The notes under the pieces are model-generated. The model was given only the letters and a program-made list of their open reading frames with translations, was not told the DNA's origin and did not search any database. A DNA stretch of 63,955 nucleotides, filler included, from Candidatus Coatesbacteria bacterium (GTDB lineage: Bacteria; JAFGND01): assembly GCA_016927185.1 (NCBI GenBank). It is 5 parts of 5 records of this genome, joined end to end, with 100 filler letters (N's around TTAATTAATTAA, not from the genome) between each part and the next. Parts side by side here need not be neighbours in the genome. Positions count along the whole stretch, not along the records: positions 47,914 to 58,011 come from JAFGND010000088.1; 4 more parts are not named here. One strand, given 5' to 3'. Shown piece after piece: positions 47,914 through 59,749 of this stretch. The translations under genes were made by a program, and so were the position numbers. The number at the start of each line of letters is the position of its first letter. Position 1 is the stretch's first letter.

Positions 47914-47989
47914 TCATTATATTATGTCATTATGGTAAAGACTTATATTTTAGGTGATATAACAATTTACGATTGTCAGGTAAGGAAAC

Positions 47990-48436
47990 ATGTCTGATTT
48001 TTTAAAGGATGCAGAACAAATAGCAAACAAGTTGAGAACACTGGGGCAGGTTGCTCCCCAGAAAGCAAAGTCAGGACTTGCTGCTGCTGCTTCTGCAATC
48101 TCCAGTCAGGCAAAGGCACTTGCACCAAGAAGGACAGGGCATTTGAAACACAGCATATCCCAGTCAGTATATCCTGTTGTTGGTGGAATGAAGGCAGTTA
48201 TTGGAACTAATGTTCATTATGTAGTTGTAACAGAAGAAGGGACAAACATTTATCCAATCATACCAACAAGAAGGAAAACAACAAGGAGAAGGAAAAGAAC
48301 AAGAAGATACTTTAATCTGAATAGACAAAAGAGAGTTAAAAAGAATGTTTATAATATTGATGATTTGCTTTTCCTGATTGTTGAAAAAGTCAGCAAAGAA
48401 GTTAATGATAGTGTAGAACAAATTTTCAAGAAATGA
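47990..48436 (+). CDS. HK97 gp10 family phage tail-component-like protein
   Basis: AKALAP.RTG.L..SI...VIGTNVHY...E.GT motif; AAGGA RBS. Confidence 0.75.
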   Translation: MSDFLKDAEQIANKLRTLGQVAPQKAKSGLAAAASAISSQAKALAPRRTGHLKHSISQSVYPVVGGMKAVIGTNVHYVVVTEEGTNIYPIIPTRRKTTRRRKRTRRYFNLNRQKRVKKNVYNIDDLLFLIVEKVSKEVNDSVEQIFKK

Positions 48437-48463
48437 TTTGTTTCTTGAAAATTTCTTAAACAA

Positions 48464-51160
48464 TCACTTGAAAACTTCTGTCAACACTTTGAAATTATTC
48501 AACTTATCTCTGTAGTCTTCCCACTTGCCTTGCTTGACATATAGAGAGTGGAAGTTGCAATCCTTGTAAAATTCTGATGCTTCTCTGCACCATTCTTTAA
48601 GTCGTTCCTTTTTCAACAAGGCATTAGTATCTTCAAGTCCTTTTGTTTCAATAATCCAGACATTATCTTTATTCTCTTGAACTATAAAGTCAGGATAATA
48701 ATTTGAAATATTCCCTTCGCAATCCCTGTAATCAATCTTGAAACCTATTGGCATGTAATTCTTTACAAAAGAAATAATATCATTGCAACTGTCAAGAAAT
48801 GCTGCAAATTTAAGTTCCAGATTATTATCACCTACTATTCTATTAAAGATAGAACGCATTGGAAAAATATATTCTTTCCAGTCAGAAAGAAAAGGTCTTG
48901 TATTCTTTACTGAAATAGTTTCTTTTAATTCAGTTACTCCTCTGTCCTCAACAGTCAGCTTGTTCAAAGCCTCTCTAAAAGCTTCTATAATTCCTTTTGT
49001 AACAGTCACTTCTGACAGATTGCAAAGCACATTCCTGTCTTCAATATTGACTGGTATTTCAAAGAGTCTGGTTTCAATGTATTGCTTCACTTTTTCATAT
49101 AGGAAGTCCTTGCCATCTACAAGATGCATGCTTTTTGTAATTGCAAGAACAAAGAAACCTATTGCATTCTGATAATTCTGAATGTATGATTCCTGCAATT
49201 CTGTTCTATGACTTTCTTCTTCAAAAACTAGCTTCTTGAAGATTATCTCCCTCTTGTCTTTTTCTTCAAATTTTGTAAGTTTCATATTCAGGAAAGGCAG
49301 GTCATTTATATTCAGGTTTGCAATGTTCTTGTATTCCCTGTAAAAGCGGGAAGATAATACTGGCAGTTTTATATTCAGGTTCTCTATATTCTTCTTCTTG
49401 TTATCAGTATCTATTTCAATCAAGAAAGGTTTGTTATTTAACTTACTGCCAATAGTCATTGGTTCATATTCCAGTTTAACACCTTCTCTTTCAATAGATT
49501 CCACAAATTCTATAAAAGCAGAAGTTCCTATGACACTAACTTTTTCTTTTAATTCCTGACCTCTGAACATCAACCTCAGTCCTCTTCCAAGTGTTTGTTC
49601 TGGAAGTATTCTGCTTTTTGCTTTGTAGGGACGCAAGCCAACCATTGTAACTACATTCCTGACATCCCAGCCTTCCCTTAACATCATAACTGAAACTATT
49701 GCCTTGTATTTGTTTTCTTCATTGTCAATTTCATGACTGAGCTTTCTCAGGCTTTCCAGTTCTTTCTTTTTGCTGCTATCAGAAGGAGCTTCTGAAATTT
49801 CACCATTGCTCTTTGTATGAATTACCAAGACACCATCTGAAAGAAGCGGGTAATGCGTTTTCAGGAATTCACCAACTTCATCGCAATTCCTTGTATCATC
49901 AGTCATTATGAAAAGCACAGGCTTCTTGCCACTCGGGTTAAACTCATTATAGGACTTTTCCCATTCTTCATATCCCAAGTCAAGATAGTCCTTGTAACGT
50001 TCAGTAAATTTGTCACTGCTTTTTTCTTTCAGTTTCTCACGTGATGCTTTGTCAGGCAACACTGGAGTTTTTACAATATGCTGTTTTATTGCTTCAACTA
50101 ATGGATAGTCACTTATGGTTTCTACAAAGATGCTTCCATTAGTATGCTTTGGGGTTGCTGTGAAATCCAGCTGCAAGGAAAGCTTGCTGTCATTCAAACG
50201 CAGATTGTTGGAAATATCTTCTATATTCTTGAACCATTCCAGCTCTTCATCATGAATATGATGAGCCTCGTCATTAATGACAATCAGGTCAGGAATTCTT
50301 CTTATTATCTGACCTACATCAAGTTTACCGTCAGTTGTCTTGCCTGCTGGTTTCTTTCCAAGAAAGTAATCCATTGTGTTCTCATCATCAATTGAAGGCT
50401 CTTTTGTCCTGCTTTCATATACTCTTTGAATATTTGTTAAAAATATGTTTCCATTGTTTGAAATCAATCCTATATTATCCTGAAAGTGAACTGAAAGCTG
50501 GAAATCATCAAGCCAGTTCTGTCCTTCAAATCCATTGTCAGGTATAATGGGATTTTTGTGAAAAATTTGAAGTGATTTAAAATCAGATTTCAGTCTTTCA
50601 AAAACTATTATGTTTGGGGCAATCACAAGAAAATTATTGCTCAAGTCTTTGCTTTCTTCATATTTCCTGTTGTAGTATGCCCATGCAACAAGCATTGCCA
50701 TGACAACTGTCTTGCCTGTTCCTGTTGCCATCTTTATTACATATCTTGTCCAGTCTTCTGGAAACATCTTTTCTGATATTTGGCTTGAGCTATCATAACG
50801 CATAAGTGAATATGGGTCATGAGCTTTCTCTATTTCAAATAACCATATTACTGATTCAACTGCTTCCCTTTGTGCAAAGTAAAAACAGAATTTGTTGAAA
50901 ATATCTTCTGTGTATTGAACCCTTTCTTCAAGATAATGTTCTGTATCAAACCAGAATTTGAACAAGGCTTTTGTTGTCTCAGTTGCTCCCTTGTAATTGC
51001 TTCTTCTCCATTCCTTTACACCTTTCCTTATCTTGTCAACCAAGGGAGGAATGAGTGTTGCATAATCCTGTTCAATAATCTCATTTTCATCTGGTTTCCA
51101 TCTCAGGGAAGGGTCTATTATCTCATATGGATTTTCTGGAAAATTTTCAAACAAAGCCAT
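48464..51160 (-). CDS. res: Type III restriction-modification Res subunit
   Basis: MATGTGKT, INDEAHH, TATP, LREGWDV, QTLGRGLR, C-terminal YYPDF...IETKG. Confidence 0.92.
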   Translation of the reverse strand: MALFENFPENPYEIIDPSLRWKPDENEIIEQDYATLIPPLVDKIRKGVKEWRRSNYKGATETTKALFKFWFDTEHYLEERVQYTEDIFNKFCFYFAQREAVESVIWLFEIEKAHDPYSLMRYDSSSQISEKMFPEDWTRYVIKMATGTGKTVVMAMLVAWAYYNRKYEESKDLSNNFLVIAPNIIVFERLKSDFKSLQIFHKNPIIPDNGFEGQNWLDDFQLSVHFQDNIGLISNNGNIFLTNIQRVYESRTKEPSIDDENTMDYFLGKKPAGKTTDGKLDVGQIIRRIPDLIVINDEAHHIHDEELEWFKNIEDISNNLRLNDSKLSLQLDFTATPKHTNGSIFVETISDYPLVEAIKQHIVKTPVLPDKASREKLKEKSSDKFTERYKDYLDLGYEEWEKSYNEFNPSGKKPVLFIMTDDTRNCDEVGEFLKTHYPLLSDGVLVIHTKSNGEISEAPSDSSKKKELESLRKLSHEIDNEENKYKAIVSVMMLREGWDVRNVVTMVGLRPYKAKSRILPEQTLGRGLRLMFRGQELKEKVSVIGTSAFIEFVESIEREGVKLEYEPMTIGSKLNNKPFLIEIDTDNKKKNIENLNIKLPVLSSRFYREYKNIANLNINDLPFLNMKLTKFEEKDKREIIFKKLVFEEESHRTELQESYIQNYQNAIGFFVLAITKSMHLVDGKDFLYEKVKQYIETRLFEIPVNIEDRNVLCNLSEVTVTKGIIEAFREALNKLTVEDRGVTELKETISVKNTRPFLSDWKEYIFPMRSIFNRIVGDNNLELKFAAFLDSCNDIISFVKNYMPIGFKIDYRDCEGNISNYYPDFIVQENKDNVWIIETKGLEDTNALLKKERLKEWCREASEFYKDCNFHSLYVKQGKWEDYRDKLNNFKVLTEVFK

Positions 51161-51180
51161 GTCAACTCCTTTACAATTTA

Positions 51181-51606
51181 CTACAGCTCATCTGACAAAT
51201 CCTTTAGCTCAGGATTCTTTTTCCTTATCAGTTTTCTCTTTGCTGTCATTGTCCATTTCTTGAAAATATTCACTTTTACAGATGCTTCTTTGTAGTCTTT
51301 CACTTTTTCAAAGTAAACCAGTTTCTCGAATACTTTTGACTGTCTTACCAGTTTATCTCTTCTCTTGAGTTTTGTTATTCTCTGTTTCAAATCAGCAGTC
51401 ACATCAATAAAGAAGATTTCATTAGCTTCATTTGTCAGTATGTAAACAAAATAACCTGTTTCTTCTACCTTGTCTGCTGCTTCTTTTAATTCCTTTACAA
51501 CCTTCTTGTTTTCTTCAAGCAAATCCTTGTAGTATGGTTTATCCAAGTCAATGATATTCATTGGATTACTGACGTCATGAGGGTATCTGGTCTTTTCTTT
51601 TTTCAT
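51181..51606 (-). CDS. GIY-YIG family protein (degenerate)
   Basis: YFVYILTN...FFIDVT.DL..R, LVYFE, K.W...K..LI...NP...DL. Confidence 0.75.
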   Translation of the reverse strand: MKKEKTRYPHDVSNPMNIIDLDKPYYKDLLEENKKVVKELKEAADKVEETGYFVYILTNEANEIFFIDVTADLKQRITKLKRRDKLVRQSKVFEKLVYFEKVKDYKEASVKVNIFKKWTMTAKRKLIRKKNPELKDLSDEL

Positions 51607-53717
51607 ATTCTCACCTCTATCACTTTTGTTGTGTCATTCCCGAAAATGTCTATGACCTTGACTGCTATTTTGTATTTGCCTTTTTGTTCATATTCATGAG
51701 AAACACTTGTCAGATCCAGTGTTCTGTCCTTCTTTTTCCTGAAGCTCTGCCACATGTTCTCAAAAATATAGCTGCCAGTCCAGACTTCTCTCTTAGATTC
51801 TCCCTCTTGTATCTTTATTATCTCCTTCTTGCTTTCATAGTCAAAGTCAACAGACCAGTAGTCAATCCAGTCAGTCCATTCTTTAGTAAGTATTTCCCTT
51901 GAAACAATTCCCTGTTTGTCTTTTGATATTTTCACTACATTCCCGTTTTCAACAATCACCTTGAAAGCTCCGTTCTTTAATCTCTCTTCTGTTTCCCTGT
52001 TATCATCCTGCCTGTAAAATACACCATAATCTTTCAGCTTGATAACAAGGGAGAGATTCTTTATTTCAGGAAGGACTTCAATATATGCAACATCAAAGAA
52101 CTGGACCTGACCTTTTTCTATTGCACGCCTGTCAAATACATCTCTCGGGATATATTTCAAGGCAAGGTTCACACCCCTGAGTTTCGCTTCGTCTTTCATG
52201 AAGTGAACTACACCCATCTCGTAATCAAAACCTAAAACATCAACCTTGCTAATCTTGTTTTTCCTGCATGATGAAATCACTTCATTAAGCAAAGACAATG
52301 TGACAGGGGAGTCGTATGAACCAACATAAAGCATTGTTGAAGCTTTCTTGCCATGAAATGGAGGAAGCTGGAAAACTCGTTCTGCTTTGTATGCCTGAAG
52401 AATTATATTAATATAATGCTCTTCTTTTTGAATGGACAGGACTTTTTTCTGCTCTTCAGGAAGGTTTGGATCAATTCCAACAAAGTATTGCCTTTCGTAT
52501 TTGCCAAGATTAAGGATTTCGAAACTTCTGTAAGGTTTGCCATCCTTCTTGAGATTTCTCTGGACATCAATAAGTCTTTTTCTTGAAGTATGAATTGCAA
52601 AGCGTCCCAAATCACATCCTATCCATTTCCTGTTAAGCTTTTCTGCAACAGACAAAGTTGTCCCAGAACCGCAGAAGAAGTCTGCAACTAAGTCGCCTTC
52701 ATTAGAAGAAGCTTTGATTATGCGGTCAAGTAAGGCTTCGGGTTTTTGAGTAGGATAGTTTATACGTTCTTGCACAGTAGGTATTTGTTGAAAAGACATT
52801 ATATCATTCCAGACATCACCAATCGCTTTGCCTTTTTCTAAGACTTCATCCAAATATCTTTTTACTCCTCTTCCATCAAAATATTTTCTCCCATCTTTAT
52901 CAATTTTATTGAATCTATTAATATATTCAATTCTATGTTCAGTGCATAGTTTGTTGAAAATAAAAGTACTGTTTTTTGTAACAAAAAAGATTGTATCATG
53001 TCCTCTAATCCAATTTTGGGCTAAACTCTTAAAACCACTTAATACACTAATATCCCATATTATTTCCCTCTGAAAATTCTCTCCCCCAAATACTTCATCC
53101 ATAATCAACCTCAAATGACTGTTAACTCTCCAGTCACAATGAACGTATATACTTCCATCATCTGAAAGCAAATCCCGCATCAAGCTAAGCCTTTCATACA
53201 TCATTGAAAGATAGGAATCTGTTCCTCTTCCCCATGTGTCTCTGTAAGCCAGCTCTTCAATTACTGACTGCTCTTTTGTAAGCTCCTCTCCTTCACCAAC
53301 TTCTATTGAAAAAGAGAAGTCCGCACCTACGTCAAAAGGAGGGTCAATATAAATGAGCTTCAATCCACCTGCCTGTTCTATCTCCTCTCTCAGATATCCA
53401 TTCTTCAATGATGACAGAACCAGCTTGTTGTCCCCCCAGATTAGCTTGTTTGTCCATCCGCCTTTCTGCCTTCCAGTCAGTTTGTCCAGCTCAAACAGAC
53501 CTATTTCTGCAGAGTCCTTTTCCTCTCTTGGTTCGTCAATGTGTTCTATGGACTGGAAAGGAAGGACAATGTTTGTCACTTCATTAGTCTTTCCCTGCCA
53601 TATAAGCTCTGTCTCAAATGGCTCTTCAAACAGCTTGTGTCTGTAATGAGCAGGAAGCGGTTGCCCTTTGTCAATCAAGCTCTTTATTTCCTCTTTTTCC
53701 CTGTCAGTCAGTTGCAT
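51603..53717 (-). CDS. mod: Type III restriction-modification Mod subunit (m6A methyltransferase)
   Basis: NKLIWGDN, LIYIDPPF, YPTQKPE.L..RII.ASS, DFFCGSGT. Confidence 0.92.
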   Translation of the reverse strand: MQLTDREKEEIKSLIDKGQPLPAHYRHKLFEEPFETELIWQGKTNEVTNIVLPFQSIEHIDEPREEKDSAEIGLFELDKLTGRQKGGWTNKLIWGDNKLVLSSLKNGYLREEIEQAGGLKLIYIDPPFDVGADFSFSIEVGEGEELTKEQSVIEELAYRDTWGRGTDSYLSMMYERLSLMRDLLSDDGSIYVHCDWRVNSHLRLIMDEVFGGENFQREIIWDISVLSGFKSLAQNWIRGHDTIFFVTKNSTFIFNKLCTEHRIEYINRFNKIDKDGRKYFDGRGVKRYLDEVLEKGKAIGDVWNDIMSFQQIPTVQERINYPTQKPEALLDRIIKASSNEGDLVADFFCGSGTTLSVAEKLNRKWIGCDLGRFAIHTSRKRLIDVQRNLKKDGKPYRSFEILNLGKYERQYFVGIDPNLPEEQKKVLSIQKEEHYINIILQAYKAERVFQLPPFHGKKASTMLYVGSYDSPVTLSLLNEVISSCRKNKISKVDVLGFDYEMGVVHFMKDEAKLRGVNLALKYIPRDVFDRRAIEKGQVQFFDVAYIEVLPEIKNLSLVIKLKDYGVFYRQDDNRETEERLKNGAFKVIVENGNVVKISKDKQGIVSREILTKEWTDWIDYWSVDFDYESKKEIIKIQEGESKREVWTGSYIFENMWQSFRKKKDRTLDLTSVSHEYEQKGKYKIAVKVIDIFGNDTTKVIEVRI

Positions 53718-53804
53718 TGAAACATTCCTTTCTTCTGAAAGTTTTGATTTTTAACACTCTGCATTGTTTTAATACTTATTAGTCAAGGAAGATTTTTTAT
53801 AAGC

Positions 53805-53901
53805 ACCTCGCCCTCTATCCTATCAGAGGAGGGGAGGAGAAATTCCTCACTCCCTATCTCTCCTTGTAAGAGAGGGGAGAAAGAATGACTGAGGAGAGGT
53901 T
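53805..53901. repeat. Degenerate REP-like element related to 20152-20229
   Basis: CCTCACTCCCTATCTCTCCTTGTAAGAGAGGGG...GAGGTTAAAA resembles CCTCACCCC...CTCTCCTTGTAGGAGAGGGG...GAGGTTAAAA. Confidence 0.65.
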
Positions 53902-53931
53902 AAAAGAAAGTTTACTGAGCTATTCAATCAA

Positions 53932-54066
53932 ATAAAAGCCCTCATCCAGTTTGATTAAAAATAAAAAAGGATAAATCATAATCTTGGTGGATGAGGGCAG
54001 TCGGTTATTATGATTAGTGCAGTAAATAAAATTAACAGTTTCAGGTCAAGGGAAAAGCACCAAGCT
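53932..54066 (-). ncRNA. Detached promoter-sRNA-terminator unit plus a truncated second unit
   Basis: GCCCTCATCCA (53938-53948)/TGGATGAGGGC (53988-53998) stem with A-tract, GGTCAA at 54044-54049, then GAAAAGCACC as in the main array. Confidence 0.55.
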
Positions 54067-54199
54067 CTAATATATCATCTTCATAGAATTTCCTTATAAA
54101 GAAATTTAATAAAGCAACTATCAAATATTTGTATCTATAATTAACTTGACAAGAAAACATATTCTCCATTTCTTTAATATAATTTAAAAGGAGTAAAAT

Positions 54200-55258
54200 A
54201 TGACAGTCTGGGTAGTAAGAGCTGGAAAATATGGAGAGTTGGAATCTATTGCTTTAAATAAAAACATTGTTTTAATAGGCTGGGGTTTAAAATCTCTTAG
54301 TTCTTTTAAAGATATGAAAGAAATAAAGGAAATGCTCGCAAGTAAGTATGCTGATAAAAGCAAAAATAGTATTTCAACTATAGCATCTGAATTGTGGTCT
54401 TTTGCCCATGACATTAAAAAGGGAGAATTAATTGTGTTACCACGCAAAACCAATTCCACTATTGCAGTTGGCGAAGTGATAGGGGATTATGAGTATAGAA
54501 GTGAACTTGAATATAGTCATACAATACCTGTAAAATGGTTGAAAACTGATATCCCGCGTGCACATTTTGATCCAGATTTATTATTTAGTTTTGGCAGCTT
54601 ATTGACAGTTTTTAAAGTAAATAGAGAAAATGCAGAAGAAAGAATAAAGGCATTAATAAGTAATACGAAACCAAATATTAGTGATGATAACAGTGATTAT
54701 TCAGCTGACATAAAGCAAAATTCAGAAGACCAGATACTAAAAATTAGTGATGATAACAGTGATTATTTTACTAACATAAAGCAATATTCAAAAGATCGGA
54801 TACTAACATATATACTAAGAAAATACAAAGGTCATAAACTAGAAAAACTAATAGAAGAGATTTTGAAATCAGAAGGTTATTTCACGCAAGGATCAAACAT
54901 AGGAGCAGATGAAGGAGTAGATATTCTTGCAGGTTCAGGGCAGTTTGGTTTTTCCCATCCCAATTTATGTATTCAAGTCAAATCAGGAAACAATCAAGTT
55001 GATTTAGCTACTTTTCGTAGTCTTCAAGGAACAATGAAAACTTTTAATGCTGAACATGGTCTTCTTGTTAGTTTGTTTGGATTTTCAAGTGCTGTGAAGA
55101 AAGAAGCGAAAAAGAGTTTTTTCAAGATAAGATTATGGGAATTAAATGATATATTTGAAGCTGTTTTAAAAAATTACGAAAAGTTTTCTGAAGATTTAAA
55201 GACAGAATTGCCATTACAAAGAATTTGGATTTTATCAGAAAAAGAAGAAGAAATTTAA
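54200..55258 (+). CDS. Mrr-like restriction endonuclease
   Basis: VWVVRAG N-terminus, C-terminal E.LI..IL...GY, GAD.GVDILA, IQVK, GLLVS..GF, IRLW. Confidence 0.85.
   Translation: MTVWVVRAGKYGELESIALNKNIVLIGWGLKSLSSFKDMKEIKEMLASKYADKSKNSISTIASELWSFAHDIKKGELIVLPRKTNSTIAVGEVIGDYEYRSELEYSHTIPVKWLKTDIPRAHFDPDLLFSFGSLLTVFKVNRENAEERIKALISNTKPNISDDNSDYSADIKQNSEDQILKISDDNSDYFTNIKQYSKDRILTYILRKYKGHKLEKLIEEILKSEGYFTQGSNIGADEGVDILAGSGQFGFSHPNLCIQVKSGNNQVDLATFRSLQGTMKTFNAEHGLLVSLFGFSSAVKKEAKKSFFKIRLWELNDIFEAVLKNYEKFSEDLKTELPLQRIWILSEKEEEI
54677..54808 (+). repeat. 66-bp in-frame tandem duplication in the Mrr linker
   Basis: ISDDNSDYSADIKQNSEDQILK / ISDDNSDYFTNIKQYSKDRILT. Confidence 0.9.
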
Positions 55259-55313
55259 TAGTTATTAGAGAAATATAAAACTACTGGAGAATTGTAAAAG
55301 CGAAATAATTGAT

Positions 55314-55348
55314 AATAGAAAAGGCTTTTGTTAAAGCCTTTTCTATTG
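55314..55348. terminator. Bidirectional terminator between convergent genes
   Basis: AATAGAAAAGGCTTT-tgtt-AAAGCCTTTTCTATT. Confidence 0.75.
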
Positions 55349-55358
55349 GAGGTAAAGA

Positions 55359-56624
55359 CTAATTTATTTTTACTATTCTTTTTGTTTCCTTCCCTGATTT
55401 AACAATATAAACTCCTTCTCTCCAGCTGCTTGTATCAAGTTTATGCATGCCTTTGGGAAGGTTCATTATCAGTTGACCTGTAATGGAATAGACAGCTCCT
55501 GAAGAAGGCAAGAAAACTGACAAGCGGGAGGAAAAGGGGTTGGGAGAAACTGAGAAGGATTTGGCTGGTATATATGAAGCTGTTTTGCTAGCCTTGAAAC
55601 CTGTATAACCAGTATCTATTGCATAAAGATAATGATCATTACTGCCTATAAACACAGTTCCTCCTCCAATGCTTGGTGAAGAAGCAACATTACCTCCAGT
55701 CAAATATCTCCAAAGAAGAGTCCCATCAGAAATATTTATTGCATAAAGATAACGATCATTACTGCCTACGTAAGCTGCTCCATTTGAAACACAGGGAGAT
55801 GTTACATTTCCACCTGTTAGATATCTCCATACAAGGGTTCCATCTGAAATATTTATAGCATAAAGATAACGATCATTACTGCCAACATAAACAACTCCAT
55901 TTGCAACACATGGTGATGAGTTTATTGTATTTCCAGTTAAATATCTCCAGACAAGAGTACCGTCTGAAGCATTAATTGCATAAAGATATCTATCATCACT
56001 GCCAACATAAACAACTCCATTAGCTAAACAAGGAGAAGAGCTTACATTGTTTCCAGTGAGATATCTCCAGCTTAAAGTACCATTTGAAGCAGTTACTGCA
56101 TAAAGGTAGTTATCATCACTACCAACAAATACTGCTGTGTTTGAAACGCAGGGAGATGAAGTAACATTGCCCCCGGTTAGATATCTCCATATAAGGGTTC
56201 CATCTGAAGTATTGATTGCGTATAGATAACGATCATTACTTCCAACGAAAGCAACTCCGTTTGCAACATATGGTGATGACGTTACGTTTCCACCTGTCTG
56301 ATATCTCCATATAAGGGTTCCATCTGAAGTATTGATTGCGTATAGATGACGATCATTACTTCCAACGAAAGCAACTCCGTTTGCAACATATGGTGATGAC
56401 GTTACGTTTCCACCTGTCTGATATCTCCATGCAAGCGTGCCATCAAAAGTACTATTAGCATAAAGGAAACGATCATTACTCCCTACGTAGACAGTATTGC
56501 TTAGAACATAGGGAGAGGAAGCAACATTGTTTCCTGTCTGGTATCTCCATAACAGGTCTCCTGGTGCTGAAAAAAGACATTCAAATAAACAGACAATGAA
56601 TAGAAAAACAATATAGTTTCTCAT
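55359..56624 (-). CDS. Eight-repeat PQQ-like beta-propeller protein with T9SS-like CTD
   Basis: GGAGG RBS, signal peptide, eight ~40-aa WRY.TG.NV.SSP.V..G..YVGSND..LYAIN..DGTL repeats, SPNPF...GVYIVK CTD. Confidence 0.9.
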   Translation of the reverse strand: MRNYIVFLFIVCLFECLFSAPGDLLWRYQTGNNVASSPYVLSNTVYVGSNDRFLYANSTFDGTLAWRYQTGGNVTSSPYVANGVAFVGSNDRHLYAINTSDGTLIWRYQTGGNVTSSPYVANGVAFVGSNDRYLYAINTSDGTLIWRYLTGGNVTSSPCVSNTAVFVGSDDNYLYAVTASNGTLSWRYLTGNNVSSSPCLANGVVYVGSDDRYLYAINASDGTLVWRYLTGNTINSSPCVANGVVYVGSNDRYLYAINISDGTLVWRYLTGGNVTSPCVSNGAAYVGSNDRYLYAINISDGTLLWRYLTGGNVASSPSIGGGTVFIGSNDHYLYAIDTGYTGFKASKTASYIPAKSFSVSPNPFSSRLSVFLPSSGAVYSITGQLIMNLPKGMHKLDTSSWREGVYIVKSGKETKRIVKIN

Positions 56625-56762
56625 CAAAATCCCTCCTTCTTTAATCAGAAATCCTAGAGAAAACAAATATTTATTTGTCAAATAAAAAATTAGGATATAC
56701 TAATCTAACCCCTAGACATGATGGACTGAGAAGAAGGAACAAAGCAGTATGGACAGGGAAGG

Positions 56763-57662
56763 AAAAGAAAACCCTCATCCAAATTTACAAATGATATTAA
56801 TGAAGGTAAATATTATTTGACCTATTAAATGGATGAGGATTATTATTAACAGACGCAAGCATAAGAATAATATAAGCATTTGAATGTCAAGAAAAAAAGC
56901 AGCTCTCAGAGGAGTTCCTCTTTGAGCTGCTTAGTAATAACAAAAATGAGGTCTTTAAACCTTGTGCTCTATAATAATAATAAAAAACTTTCTGTCAAGT
57001 CGAAAGCGCTCCGATATGAATTATCGGAATACTAAAAGAAGCAATAAAATGAAACCTTAGTCAGAGCTGTTAAAAAAATTAATATTACCGAGTCAAGAGA
57101 AAAGCACCTCAAAAGGGATATCCGTTTGAGGTGCTGAAGATCAATATTTGAGGTTTGAAAAACCTAGTAAACATCTATATTTTTTAAACAGTTTCTGTCA
57201 AGAAAAAAGCACTCCGATTTGAATAATCGGAGTACTAAAAGAAGCAATAAGATGAAACCTTAGACAGAGCTGTTAAAAAAATTAATATTGCGTTAAGAAA
57301 AAAAAGCACCATGCCATTTTTAAAGCATGGTGCTGGAGTATGATATGAAAACAACAAAGCAATATATCGCCTTGATGTAACAAAAACAAGGATATATAGA
57401 TAATAGAATTAGTCAAGAAAAATGCACCAAAGTTTTTCAAAAAGCTTTGGTGCGTAGAGAGAAAAAGAAATTAGTAAAATCAAATTCAGGAGAGAATTTA
57501 ATTTCAGGGAAAAGATATAAATGCTTGCAAAATAGGTCAAGGAATAAATAAAACTTCACCAGATTAATCTGGTGAAGTAGTTGTTCAAAAAAAAGTCAAC
57601 AAACAAGTCTTGTGATTGCTTGTTGCTGCCATGCAAGATAATATATGAGGAAATCTTGTCAA
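56763..57662 (-). ncRNA. Tandem array of eight putative promoter-small RNA-terminator cassettes
   Basis: -35-like boxes (minus strand TTGAC) start at 56885, 56993, 57091, 57196, 57291 (degenerate), 57411, 57535 and 57657. Each unit ends in a GC-rich hairpin plus U-tract abutting the next -35. No substantial ORFs. Confidence 0.7.
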
Positions 57663-57715
57663 GAGGAAAGGGAGAGAAGGAAAAAATCCAAGATAGTATT
57701 AATAAAAACCTTAAA

Positions 57716-58011
57716 TTAAAAACTTATCTCCTTAGTATATTCTATAACATTGAAATCTTCAAACATGCAAGCTTGATTTAATAAGTGGCTTATTAAAACA
57801 TAGAAAAATAATAAAGGTTTAGTAGTCAAACTTGCTATAGAAATAGATCCTTGACTCGGTAAAGCTGAAAAATTCCCTAGCTGATCTTTATTTATTATTA
57901 CTCCCTTTCTTAATATACAAATAGAATCTATTCTTTTATCAACTTCATCATTTGACTGCAATTCAATCAAGTTTTTATTGACCACATCTGGAGCATCTGA
58001 ATCAAATGCAA
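57716..58011 (-). CDS. 3' part of a hypothetical protein (DUF6602-like), truncated by contig end
   Basis: Frame open to the gap: AFDSDAPDVVNKNL...IDSICILRKG. Confidence 0.55.
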
Positions 58012-58384: not shown

Positions 58385-59749
58385 ATGAAACAAGCCAAAT
58401 TCAAGGCTTTACTTTTTCCAAAGCCTTACTCCAATGGATTATATCCTATTTATATAAGGATATATCAAAACAGAAAATCTAACTATATATCTATGGGGCA
58501 TTCTATCCCGCAGGGGGCTTGGAATCCTGATAAGAATGAAGTATGGGAATCAAAGCCCAGCCTTACAGAAAAACTGAAGCAATCCTTATCAAAAGAAGAA
58601 ATAAAAGCATTCAGACAAAAACAAGCTTCTATCATTCTCATCACAAATGCTATAAAGATTAATTCAGATATTAGGGTTAAAATAGCAGAACTTGAAAGCC
58701 TTCAAAATAAATTGTCAGTAAATCAGGAAGCTATTACTTCTGGGATATTAAAGAACAAGGCAGACAGGAAAGATATTGCTGAAAAATCAAGGAAGGATTT
58801 TCTTCTTTATATTGAAGAAGTAGCTAAAAGGAAATATGAAAAGAAACAGATAAGAACTTCAGAGAAATATTCAGCTTTGCTTAGAAAACTGAAAGCATTT
58901 AGGAAGGATAAGCCCCTGCCCCTTGAAGAATTAACAACAAGCTTCCTGAATGATTATCAGTTGTATCTTCAGAAAGAAGGAAGCCATCAAAACTATATTA
59001 ATGTAAATCTAAGTGTCTTAAGAACAATCATTCAGAAGGATGCAATCAAGGAAGACAAAATATTATCACCTGAAAAAAATCCTTTTATTTGGTTTACAAT
59101 GCCAAAGATTCTTCCTACTCATAAAGAAAAACTTGATATTAATGAACTACAAAAAATTGAAGGTTTACAGCTTGAAAAGAATCAATCACTATATCATGTT
59201 AGAAATGCTTTCATCTTCAGCCTTTATAATGCCGGGATAAGAATAGGGGATTTACTCCAACTGAAATGGTGCAATATTAAGGAAGATGGAAGGCTGGAAT
59301 ATTATATGGGCAAAACAGGAAGTGAAAGAAGTATAAAGCTTCTTCCCCAATCTATGAAGATTCTTAAGCTTTATGAATCAGACAAAGAAAAAGATGCAGA
59401 TTATATCTTCCCCTTCCTTGACAACAAAGCCCCGTATTCTAAACTGATAAGTCCAGAAGATTTTCAGAAGGCTTCCCCAGAACTTCTGGTATTATTATAT
59501 AATAAAATTGAAAGCCAAGCAACGATGTATAATCTGGCTTTAAAAACCATTGCAAAAGAAGCAAAAATCAAGAAGAAGATTTCTTCTCATATTGCTAGGC
59601 ATTCATTTGCTGATATTGCCAGGAAGAAAGTATCAGTTTATGACATTCAAAAGATGCTGGGTCATACATCGATGAAAACAACTGAAGCTTACCTTAAATC
59701 TCTTGATAATGATGCAATGGATAAGGCAATGGAAGAAGTATTCAAATAA
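58385..59749 (+). CDS. int: Site-specific tyrosine integrase (arm-binding + SAM-like + catalytic domains)
   Basis: G.YPIYIRI N-terminal arm domain; AGIRIGD (R), KT, SHIARHSFA (H..R), LGH, T..Y. Confidence 0.95.
   Translation: MKQAKFKALLFPKPYSNGLYPIYIRIYQNRKSNYISMGHSIPQGAWNPDKNEVWESKPSLTEKLKQSLSKEEIKAFRQKQASIILITNAIKINSDIRVKIAELESLQNKLSVNQEAITSGILKNKADRKDIAEKSRKDFLLYIEEVAKRKYEKKQIRTSEKYSALLRKLKAFRKDKPLPLEELTTSFLNDYQLYLQKEGSHQNYINVNLSVLRTIIQKDAIKEDKILSPEKNPFIWFTMPKILPTHKEKLDINELQKIEGLQLEKNQSLYHVRNAFIFSLYNAGIRIGDLLQLKWCNIKEDGRLEYYMGKTGSERSIKLLPQSMKILKLYESDKEKDADYIFPFLDNKAPYSKLISPEDFQKASPELLVLLYNKIESQATMYNLALKTIAKEAKIKKKISSHIARHSFADIARKKVSVYDIQKMLGHTSMKTTEAYLKSLDNDAMDKAMEEVFK

Follow-up and report, generated by a model that had tools for sequence, protein, structure and literature searches.

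Several described systems resemble the locus reported here, and we summarise them as they stand in the available parts of the published accounts. LhrC of Listeria monocytogenes consists of two stem-loops that flank a single strand, is poor in G and binds the Shine-Dalgarno (SD) sequence through CU-rich motifs; the lhrC1-4 genes are clustered and each has its own promoter, Hfq is not needed for blocking the SD of a surface-protein mRNA, and the copies are almost identical, 111–114 nt long and equipped with three UCCC motifs (PMC4132741). The Csr/Rsm decoy RNAs are characterised in the same account by a GGA motif (PMC4132741). Tandem siblings such as AbcR1/2, OmrA/B, PrrF1/2 and the csRNAs are adjacent sRNA genes that are independently transcribed and have diverging targets (PMC4211561). 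FopS of Bacteroides, which goes with the RRM protein RbpB, comprises paralogous sRNAs of 65–70 nt that end in an intrinsic terminator and repress translation near the start codons of envelope genes (PMC11697453). In T4-type phages, PeSLs join a terminator hairpin to a strong -35 box in a plastic region (PMC2839356; PMC4122927); they end in an SD and a start codon and flank ORFs, and in one subclass a stem-loop lies within an AT-rich stretch before the -35 box (PMC2839356). Finally, the ncRNA arrays of UG27 reverse transcriptases consist of sequence-diverse, structurally alike units of 135–167 nt with conserved internal motifs (10.64898/2026.09.22.753630).

We analysed a window of 63,955 nucleotides (the whole stretch of DNA studied), in which contigs are chained via N linkers and adjacent contigs need not be neighbours in the genome. 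It derives from the genome of an uncultured sediment bacterium (2.99 Mb, 36% GC, 93% complete). The contig that bears the array (10,098 bp, window 47914–58011; C19) contains eight minus-strand units of 95–130 bp, in which each -35 box abuts the hairpin and U-tract of the preceding unit, with zero spacing between the U-tract and the next -35 box. The units (the higher coordinate is the unit start) and the other features of this contig are as follows.

U1: 57541 to 57662, minus strand, 122 bp; -35 box, -10 TATCTT, 5' hairpin, 15-nt linker and terminator hairpin at 57553–57578; folding z -5.8.
U2: 57417 to 57540, minus strand, 124 bp; 5' hairpin with an unpaired anti-SD loop (CUCCU), 21-nt C/U linker and terminator; folding z -7.7.
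U3: 57297 to 57416, minus strand, 120 bp; the linker is the antisense of GGAG + 6 nt + ATG, and neither of these words is paired.
U4: 57202 to 57296, minus strand, 95 bp; variant -35 box TTAAC; paralog of U6.
U5: 57097 to 57201, minus strand, 105 bp; paralog of U7; its 5' hairpin holds an anti-GAGGU word in the 3' arm.
U6: 56999 to 57096, minus strand, 98 bp; decaying copy of U4, with a stem mismatch and the U-tract lost.
U7: 56891 to 56998, minus strand, 108 bp; best sigma70-like promoter (11/12); has diverged from its paralog U5, the terminator stem showing a compensatory change.
U8: 56761 to 56890, minus strand, 130 bp; long hairpin whose outer stem is invariant; belongs to a family that has four copies in the genome.
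U9: 53930 to 54056, minus strand; U8-family unit that stands alone and precedes the type III mod gene, overlooked in the preliminary description; folding z -5.6.
DUF6602 / NucC-like nuclease gene, 3' end: 57716 to 58011, minus strand; truncated by the contig end; 47–58% identity to five PF20247 proteins.
Copy of an element of about 30 bp: 56702 to 56729, minus strand; found 21 times in the genome.
PQQ-type beta-propeller gene: 55359 to 56624, minus strand; secreted, with a Por secretion tail and its own -35 box; large host family.
Mrr-like gene: 54200 to 55258, plus strand; PADLOC PDC-S02.
Type III R-M mod and res genes with a GIY-YIG gene between them: 48464 to 53717, minus strand.
HK97 gp10-like gene: 47990 to 48436, plus strand; at the opposite contig end.

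The preliminary description had seen at 56763–57662 a row of eight self-contained small RNA genes in DNA devoid of a real ORF. Its eight GTCAA or GTTAA boxes, five -10-like hexamers and eight stems were all found in place, and the longest ATG-started ORFs of this interval have 34 aa (minus strand) and 29 aa (plus strand). The hairpin and U-tract that it assigned to every unit are present in most of them, but U6 has lost its U-tract, and may be read through into U7, and U8 has a 66-nt irregular hairpin and no standard terminator. The units are indeed non-identical, as it had stated, but it had overlooked a 130-nt repeat of 82% identity and the 93% identity of U4 and U6 over 84 nt.

A three-junction pattern had two matches in the window, as against none in 100 shuffles, and terminator-like sites numbered 4 vs 0.8 ± 0.9 in shuffles. 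In the whole 2.99-Mb genome we found 46 junctions of a hairpin and U-tract with TT(G/A)AC, which formed a run at the array locus only. Predicted RNA folding was strong in seven of the eight units (z -3.4 to -7.7), with U6 at z -1.1. That the array is an assembly artefact or a chance arrangement is extremely improbable: the genome is a metagenome bin and the contig ends at 58011, about 350 bp upstream of the array, but a second, separately assembled contig is identical over 56401–58011 (0 differences) and has no joint within the array (it comes from the only DNA run in which the array was found, a sediment metagenome that may be its source, and may derive from the same reads), and the shuffle, junction-run and fold statistics also speak against it, as do the internal paralogs described below, which are diverged and therefore cannot be explained by misjoining. 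The tiling is real, beyond chance and free of misassembly.

We then looked at the promoters. Upstream of 706 genes, CTTGAC was found 256 times in sense and 84 times in antisense orientation, and it is the dominant promoter mark of this organism. The box is preceded by C in 64% of 556 sites, TAnnnT reaches at most 5.4% at any spacing, and promoters across the genome have a strong cTTGACa -35 box and almost no TATAAT-type -10. A motif fit gave a diffuse -10 and placed the eight units within the range of ordinary promoters; together with the dominance of CTTGAC, this makes the -35 boxes of the array credible. The weak -10s of U4, U6 and U8 are no objection, since the -10 is weak genome-wide, and the predicted start sites are uncertain, among them those of U4, U6 and the U8 family. 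The promoter scan by itself was weak (14 sites vs 7.6 ± 3.4 in shuffles). No sense-strand ribosome-binding site with a frame was found in the units, whose start-site scores were 1.2–6.2 vs a median of 11.3 for real starts. The earlier view of independent promoter-RNA-terminator units thus stands at the level of sequence, where the organism's -35 mark, a fold and a terminator recur from unit to unit, but not for the ends of U6 and U8. We consider it quite likely that the units are transcribed as discrete RNAs; they would be separately transcribed small RNA genes, with RNAs of about 60–95 nt.

Regarding their anatomy, U1–U5 and U7 have a common plan, that is a 5' hairpin, a single strand of 11–21 nt, a terminator hairpin and a U-tract, without a common sequence. 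Their six linkers, 94 nt in total, contain 4 G and 70 C/U. Based on pairwise comparison, the eight units fall into six sequence classes: U1, U2, U3, U4/U6 (z 13), U5/U7 (z 5.4) and U8. In particular, U4-U5 and U6-U7 form a tandem duplication of about 203 bp, with one double-sided change at the loop-closing pair of U4/U6 and another in the terminator stem of U5/U7. In six units (U2, U3, U4, U5, U7 and U8) an anti-SD or anti-start word is left unpaired; CUCCU is fully unpaired in the 5' loop of U2, a mirror of GAGGU lies in the hairpin arm of U5/U7, and U8 has an anti-start word in its loop.

A structure common to the units, with no such commonality of sequence, would also be expected of protein-binding decoys or antitoxin-like RNAs, acting on an RRM protein or on the product of the NucC-like operon. 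The genome has one RRM gene, U-rich single strands suit RRM proteins, and the array follows the NucC-like gene on the same strand. No loop motif common to the classes was found, however, neither CsrA nor Hfq was found in the 93% complete genome, and the U8 homologs lie away from the nuclease gene; we therefore hold this explanation to be unlikely. The preliminary description had proposed a search for a consistently co-occurring protein gene, and none was tied to the array.

The U8 class has three solitary homologs, all including the -35 box: U9 in the window (53930–54056), C8:290–417 and C30:6594–6723. They precede the type III mod gene and two further genes on C8 and C30, which we take to be type I hsdR-like and seryl-tRNA synthetase-like. 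All three are located shortly upstream of genes that have a separate -35 box, so that the solitary copies are not needed as leaders. In the four-copy family, 92.5% of stem cells were paired and 4 pairs had changed on both sides (8/500 shuffles), values that come from only 4 sequences and from a structure derived from those same sequences. A model built from the four copies found no fifth copy in the genome and no match in 100 unrelated genomes, and the U8 pattern scan of viral contigs gave 0 matches. U8 is the only class with copies elsewhere in the genome; the mini-gene scan recovered 4 of the 8 units and 1 of the 3 U8 homologs, and further solitary units may exist. We also observed that two solitary U8-family units precede restriction-modification operons, and that the C8 copy and the window have the same terminator after a secreted-protein gene; in the window, the Mrr-like gene sits between that terminator and U9, as if inserted. 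A REP-like palindromic repeat with a few copies elsewhere in the genome lies at about 53800–53900, between U9 and the mod promoter. Judging from the paralogs and the solitary copies, the cluster has grown at least partly by duplication of units (U4-U5/U6-U7) and by the adding of a unit that is also found alone (U8 family).

The same junctions could have arisen if regulatory or selfish promoter-terminator cassettes, PeSL- or MITE-like and with functionless transcripts, had been stacked, as emptied gene slots or insulators piling up by recombination at the T-tract/-35 junction. The absence of any spacing at this junction fits such stacking, as do TTTTTCTTGA at both ends of two of the three solitary U8 homologs, the position of all three before genes with separate -35 boxes, the decay of U6 and the plasticity of the region, and also the PeSL subclass whose stem-loop precedes the -35 box within an AT-rich stretch, as far as the available part of that account goes (PMC2839356). 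Yet the PeSLs described there end in an SD and a start codon, which are found in none of the array units, an insulator needs neither the 5' hairpin nor the G-poor linker of similar length that are present in six units, and of the six classes U8 alone has copies elsewhere in the genome. We regard stacked cassettes as a doubtful explanation.

Our preferred reading, to which we give a probability of roughly one half, is that the array is a tandem cluster of varied small RNAs which act in trans and block ribosome sites. Through a G-poor, C/U-rich single strand or loop, each RNA would base-pair in trans with target mRNAs, at their start codon and purine-rich ribosome-binding site; this pairing would block their translation as in LhrC, AbcR and FopS, without Hfq and perhaps with the one RRM protein of the genome. 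Once discrete transcription is granted, such anti-RBS action is rather probable.

We examined the pairing of 11 bodies (the 8 units and the 3 U8 homologs) with 500 translation starts, and all of them paired slightly better with starts than with matched coding controls (D 0.49–1.79). The background was D 0.21 ± 0.56 in 900 intergenic controls, and the sense strands of the bodies gave D of at most 0.12. With a background matched for composition (pyrimidine content), 1 of the 11 bodies was significant (U9, p 0.015; others 0.10–0.48), and the bias towards starts may therefore reflect U-richness only. A start-site model applied to the antisense strand gave p<0.05 for two of the eight units (U3, whose antisense strand reads GGAG, six bases and ATG, p 0.04; U6, p 0.042), p 0.104 for U4 and p 0.28–0.99 for the other five (U1, U2, U5 and U8 at 0.64–0.99). 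For the best single host target among 1,961 starts, 1 of 11 bodies was at p<0.05, and in the start-anchored target test 2 of 9, both uncorrected; the searches in the own genome left no robust single target after controls.

Propeller genes recurred among the matches. Propeller-operon junctions made up 8 of the 20 top matches of U2 (p_max 0.06), the family holding 85 of the 1,961 starts, and U2 against the adjacent propeller start ranked in the top 0.9%, as one of 54 comparisons. In U5, 5 members of the family were among the top 22 of 2,216. This enrichment may be explained by the strong purine-rich starts of the family. For every unit, the mod, res and Mrr-like starts ranked at the top 8% or lower, and in ten viral starts that match the U3 pattern no match extended beyond the pattern. 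Different units would have different targets, which may be host envelope or secreted-protein genes, at which the weak propeller hints point, or genes of mobile elements that are absent from the assembly.

On the minus strand, the 3' end of the DUF6602 gene is followed by the array and the beta-propeller gene, then by the Mrr-like gene (opposite strand), the type III mod, the GIY-YIG, the res and the HK97 gp10-like genes. NucC models were matched by a homolog (P0001) of the DUF6602 gene, the remainder of which was not found elsewhere in the assembly, and no viral locus was found in which DUF6602 is linked with such arrays. The GIY-YIG gene (51181–51606) is wedged between mod and res. No tRNA or tmRNA was found on the contig. 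The element of about 30 bp has the core CCAT(C/G)ATGTCTAGGGG, is located mostly 15–35 bp upstream of a -35 box, and often precedes secreted propeller or other exported-protein genes; three of its copies at contig ends have further sequence in common, as if they opened a collapsed repeat or mobile element. We also noticed that the first 13 bases of U6 (57085–57097) are a perfect inverted copy of 57850–57862 inside the DUF6602 gene, which is probably due to chance. On a separate contig (58385–62094), small genes accompany an HTH_17 excisionase-like gene and a tyrosine integrase of Bacteroidota type; it is the end of an integrative element, and the integrase at 58385 need not be linked to the array.

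The contig does carry the defence genes on which the preliminary description had built its suggestion of a defence or anti-defence role: the type III R-M system and the PDC-S02 Mrr-like gene, to which the cut NucC-like gene adds, with the HK97 gp10-like gene at the other end. The role itself found no support, as the direct downstream neighbour of the array belongs to a large host propeller family (107 phmmer hits), the pairing with defence-gene starts was not notable and no partner protein emerged.

The operon upstream of the array is cut by the contig end, and an enzyme encoded beyond it could use the units as a guide or template array of the CRISPR, TIGR or UG27 kind. Sequence-diverse units with a common fold are also found in the UG27 arrays, in the part of that account available (10.64898/2026.09.22.753630), but UG27 units measure 135–167 nt and have conserved internal motifs there. 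With a promoter mark and an end hairpin of its own for every unit, no constant repeat or handle, and neither Cas1 nor a reverse transcriptase found in the assembly, such an array is highly improbable.

Other array types were considered and rejected. CRISPR arrays, CreTA and Racr have constant repeats or a repeat-like handle, with cas genes in the host; here we found neither a constant repeat nor a handle, and Cas1, the cas gene that was searched, is not found in the 93% complete genome. In type III toxin-antitoxin systems, the repeats of the array are nearly identical, belong to a single precursor and precede a nuclease toxin gene. The array is downstream of the NucC-like gene, and its units are dissimilar and separately terminated. 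In type I toxin-antitoxin repeats, each RNA has a toxin ORF, small and hydrophobic, next to it or opposite; plus-strand ORFs of the array have at most 29 aa and are not hydrophobic, and an SD-led frame of 11 codons is present in U3 only. The repeated GGA loops of Csr/Rsm decoys were not found in the units, and CsrA was not found in the genome. Finally, no integron integrase scored above the TIGR02249 cut-off in the 93% complete genome, which speaks against an integron cassette array.

Comparison with outside collections placed the units in no known Rfam family, an assignment that would have refuted the preliminary description: no match in the window reached the gathering score of Rfam 15 (best E 0.13, all far below gathering), including FopS, LhrC and AbcR in the scans of the array. 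A blastn search of the array against 60 unrelated genomes gave a best E of 0.001 over 29 nt, the genomes compared including no other member of the source phylum, and matches in phages and plasmids were at most 59 nt long. No homolog was found outside this genome, which leaves no deep covariation to draw on. The family-specific junction pattern was found 0 times in viral contigs and at 12 metagenome loci, none of them an array.

Scans for the architecture alone (71 + 23 + 40 viral loci and at least 119 genome stretches) gave, among the matches listed, one clear analog (L033) and one partial one (L266), the others listed being coding or near-identical repeats. L033 (G061:39216–39763) is an array of four promoter/anti-start/terminator units at the end of a 39.8-kb phage record, which is rich in pentapeptide-repeat-like genes. 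Its unit 1 has 13 exact bases against the start of the phage gene at 36298 (p 0.016; 123 starts, array excluded), the start match of unit 3 had p 0.026 and that of unit 2 p 0.118, and unit 4 is without an anti-ATG; thus two of the three testable units match starts of the phage's own genes better than shuffles, a modest support for antisense targets in this phage. One unit of L033 scored 34.3 bits against Rfam suhB/MmgR, below the threshold of 41. L033 supports the design principle only, because its sequence family differs. L266 (2380–2790) has two or three promoter/structured-RNA/terminator units after the end of a holin-like gene in a viral contig. In Okeania sp. (L135) we observed tandem repeats of 105 bp that are nearly identical; every one has a hairpin and a perfect TTGACA/TATAAT promoter.

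A bolder reading, which we consider very unlikely, is that the array is a modular, evolving antisense library. Units would be gained, duplicated and lost whole at the T-tract/-35 junction, each would mirror a different translation start, and a host or mobile element would thereby gather protein-free silencers of incoming, defence or surface-protein genes. If this were true, recurrence of the design across unrelated bacteria and phages would make it a widespread, undescribed class of RNA arrays. As to the tandem cluster of ribosome-site-blocking RNAs that we prefer, a spacer-free row of eight units with six unrelated classes and one fold, in a genome in which no Hfq was found, would mean that sRNA repertoires can be built from movable units; tandem sRNA genes in the available parts of the compared literature are pairs or near-identical siblings, and a partial literature search found no published account of a spacer-free row of unrelated small RNAs. 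The simple signature, a terminator U-tract fused to a -35 box, can guide the detection of small RNAs in phages and in microbes that have not been cultured.

Compared with known systems, as far as their accounts were available, LhrC appears to be the closest working model of the array. Like LhrC1-5, the array has the plan of stem-loop, single strand and terminator, is G-poor and CU-rich and has a predicted promoter per copy; unlike LhrC, it has six unrelated sequence classes, shorter RNAs, no repeated UCCC and no Rfam match. The tandem siblings of the 2014 review are pairs of related RNAs (PMC4211561), whereas the array has eight mostly unrelated units without spacer DNA. The setting, with one RRM protein and no Hfq found in the source genome, resembles that of FopS, but the FopS RNAs, in the part described, begin with a seed that is single-stranded, lack a 5' hairpin and have an R1 sequence in common. 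With PeSLs the array has in common stem-loops joined to a sigma70-like promoter, a plausible route for the gain, loss and duplication of units, and it differs from the described ones in that its units have no ORF and no 3' SD and start codon, and have a second hairpin. It differs from the UG27 arrays, as partly described, in unit size and fold, and no reverse transcriptase was found in the assembly, which on the upstream side ends with the contig. The term "undescribed RNA system" of the preliminary description was too strong, given that the architecture has precedents (LhrC1-4, AbcR1/2), and we regard the array as a well-formed candidate rather than a new system. By analogy, it most likely works like the known tandem sRNAs, while belonging to none of their families and differing from them in size and heterogeneity.
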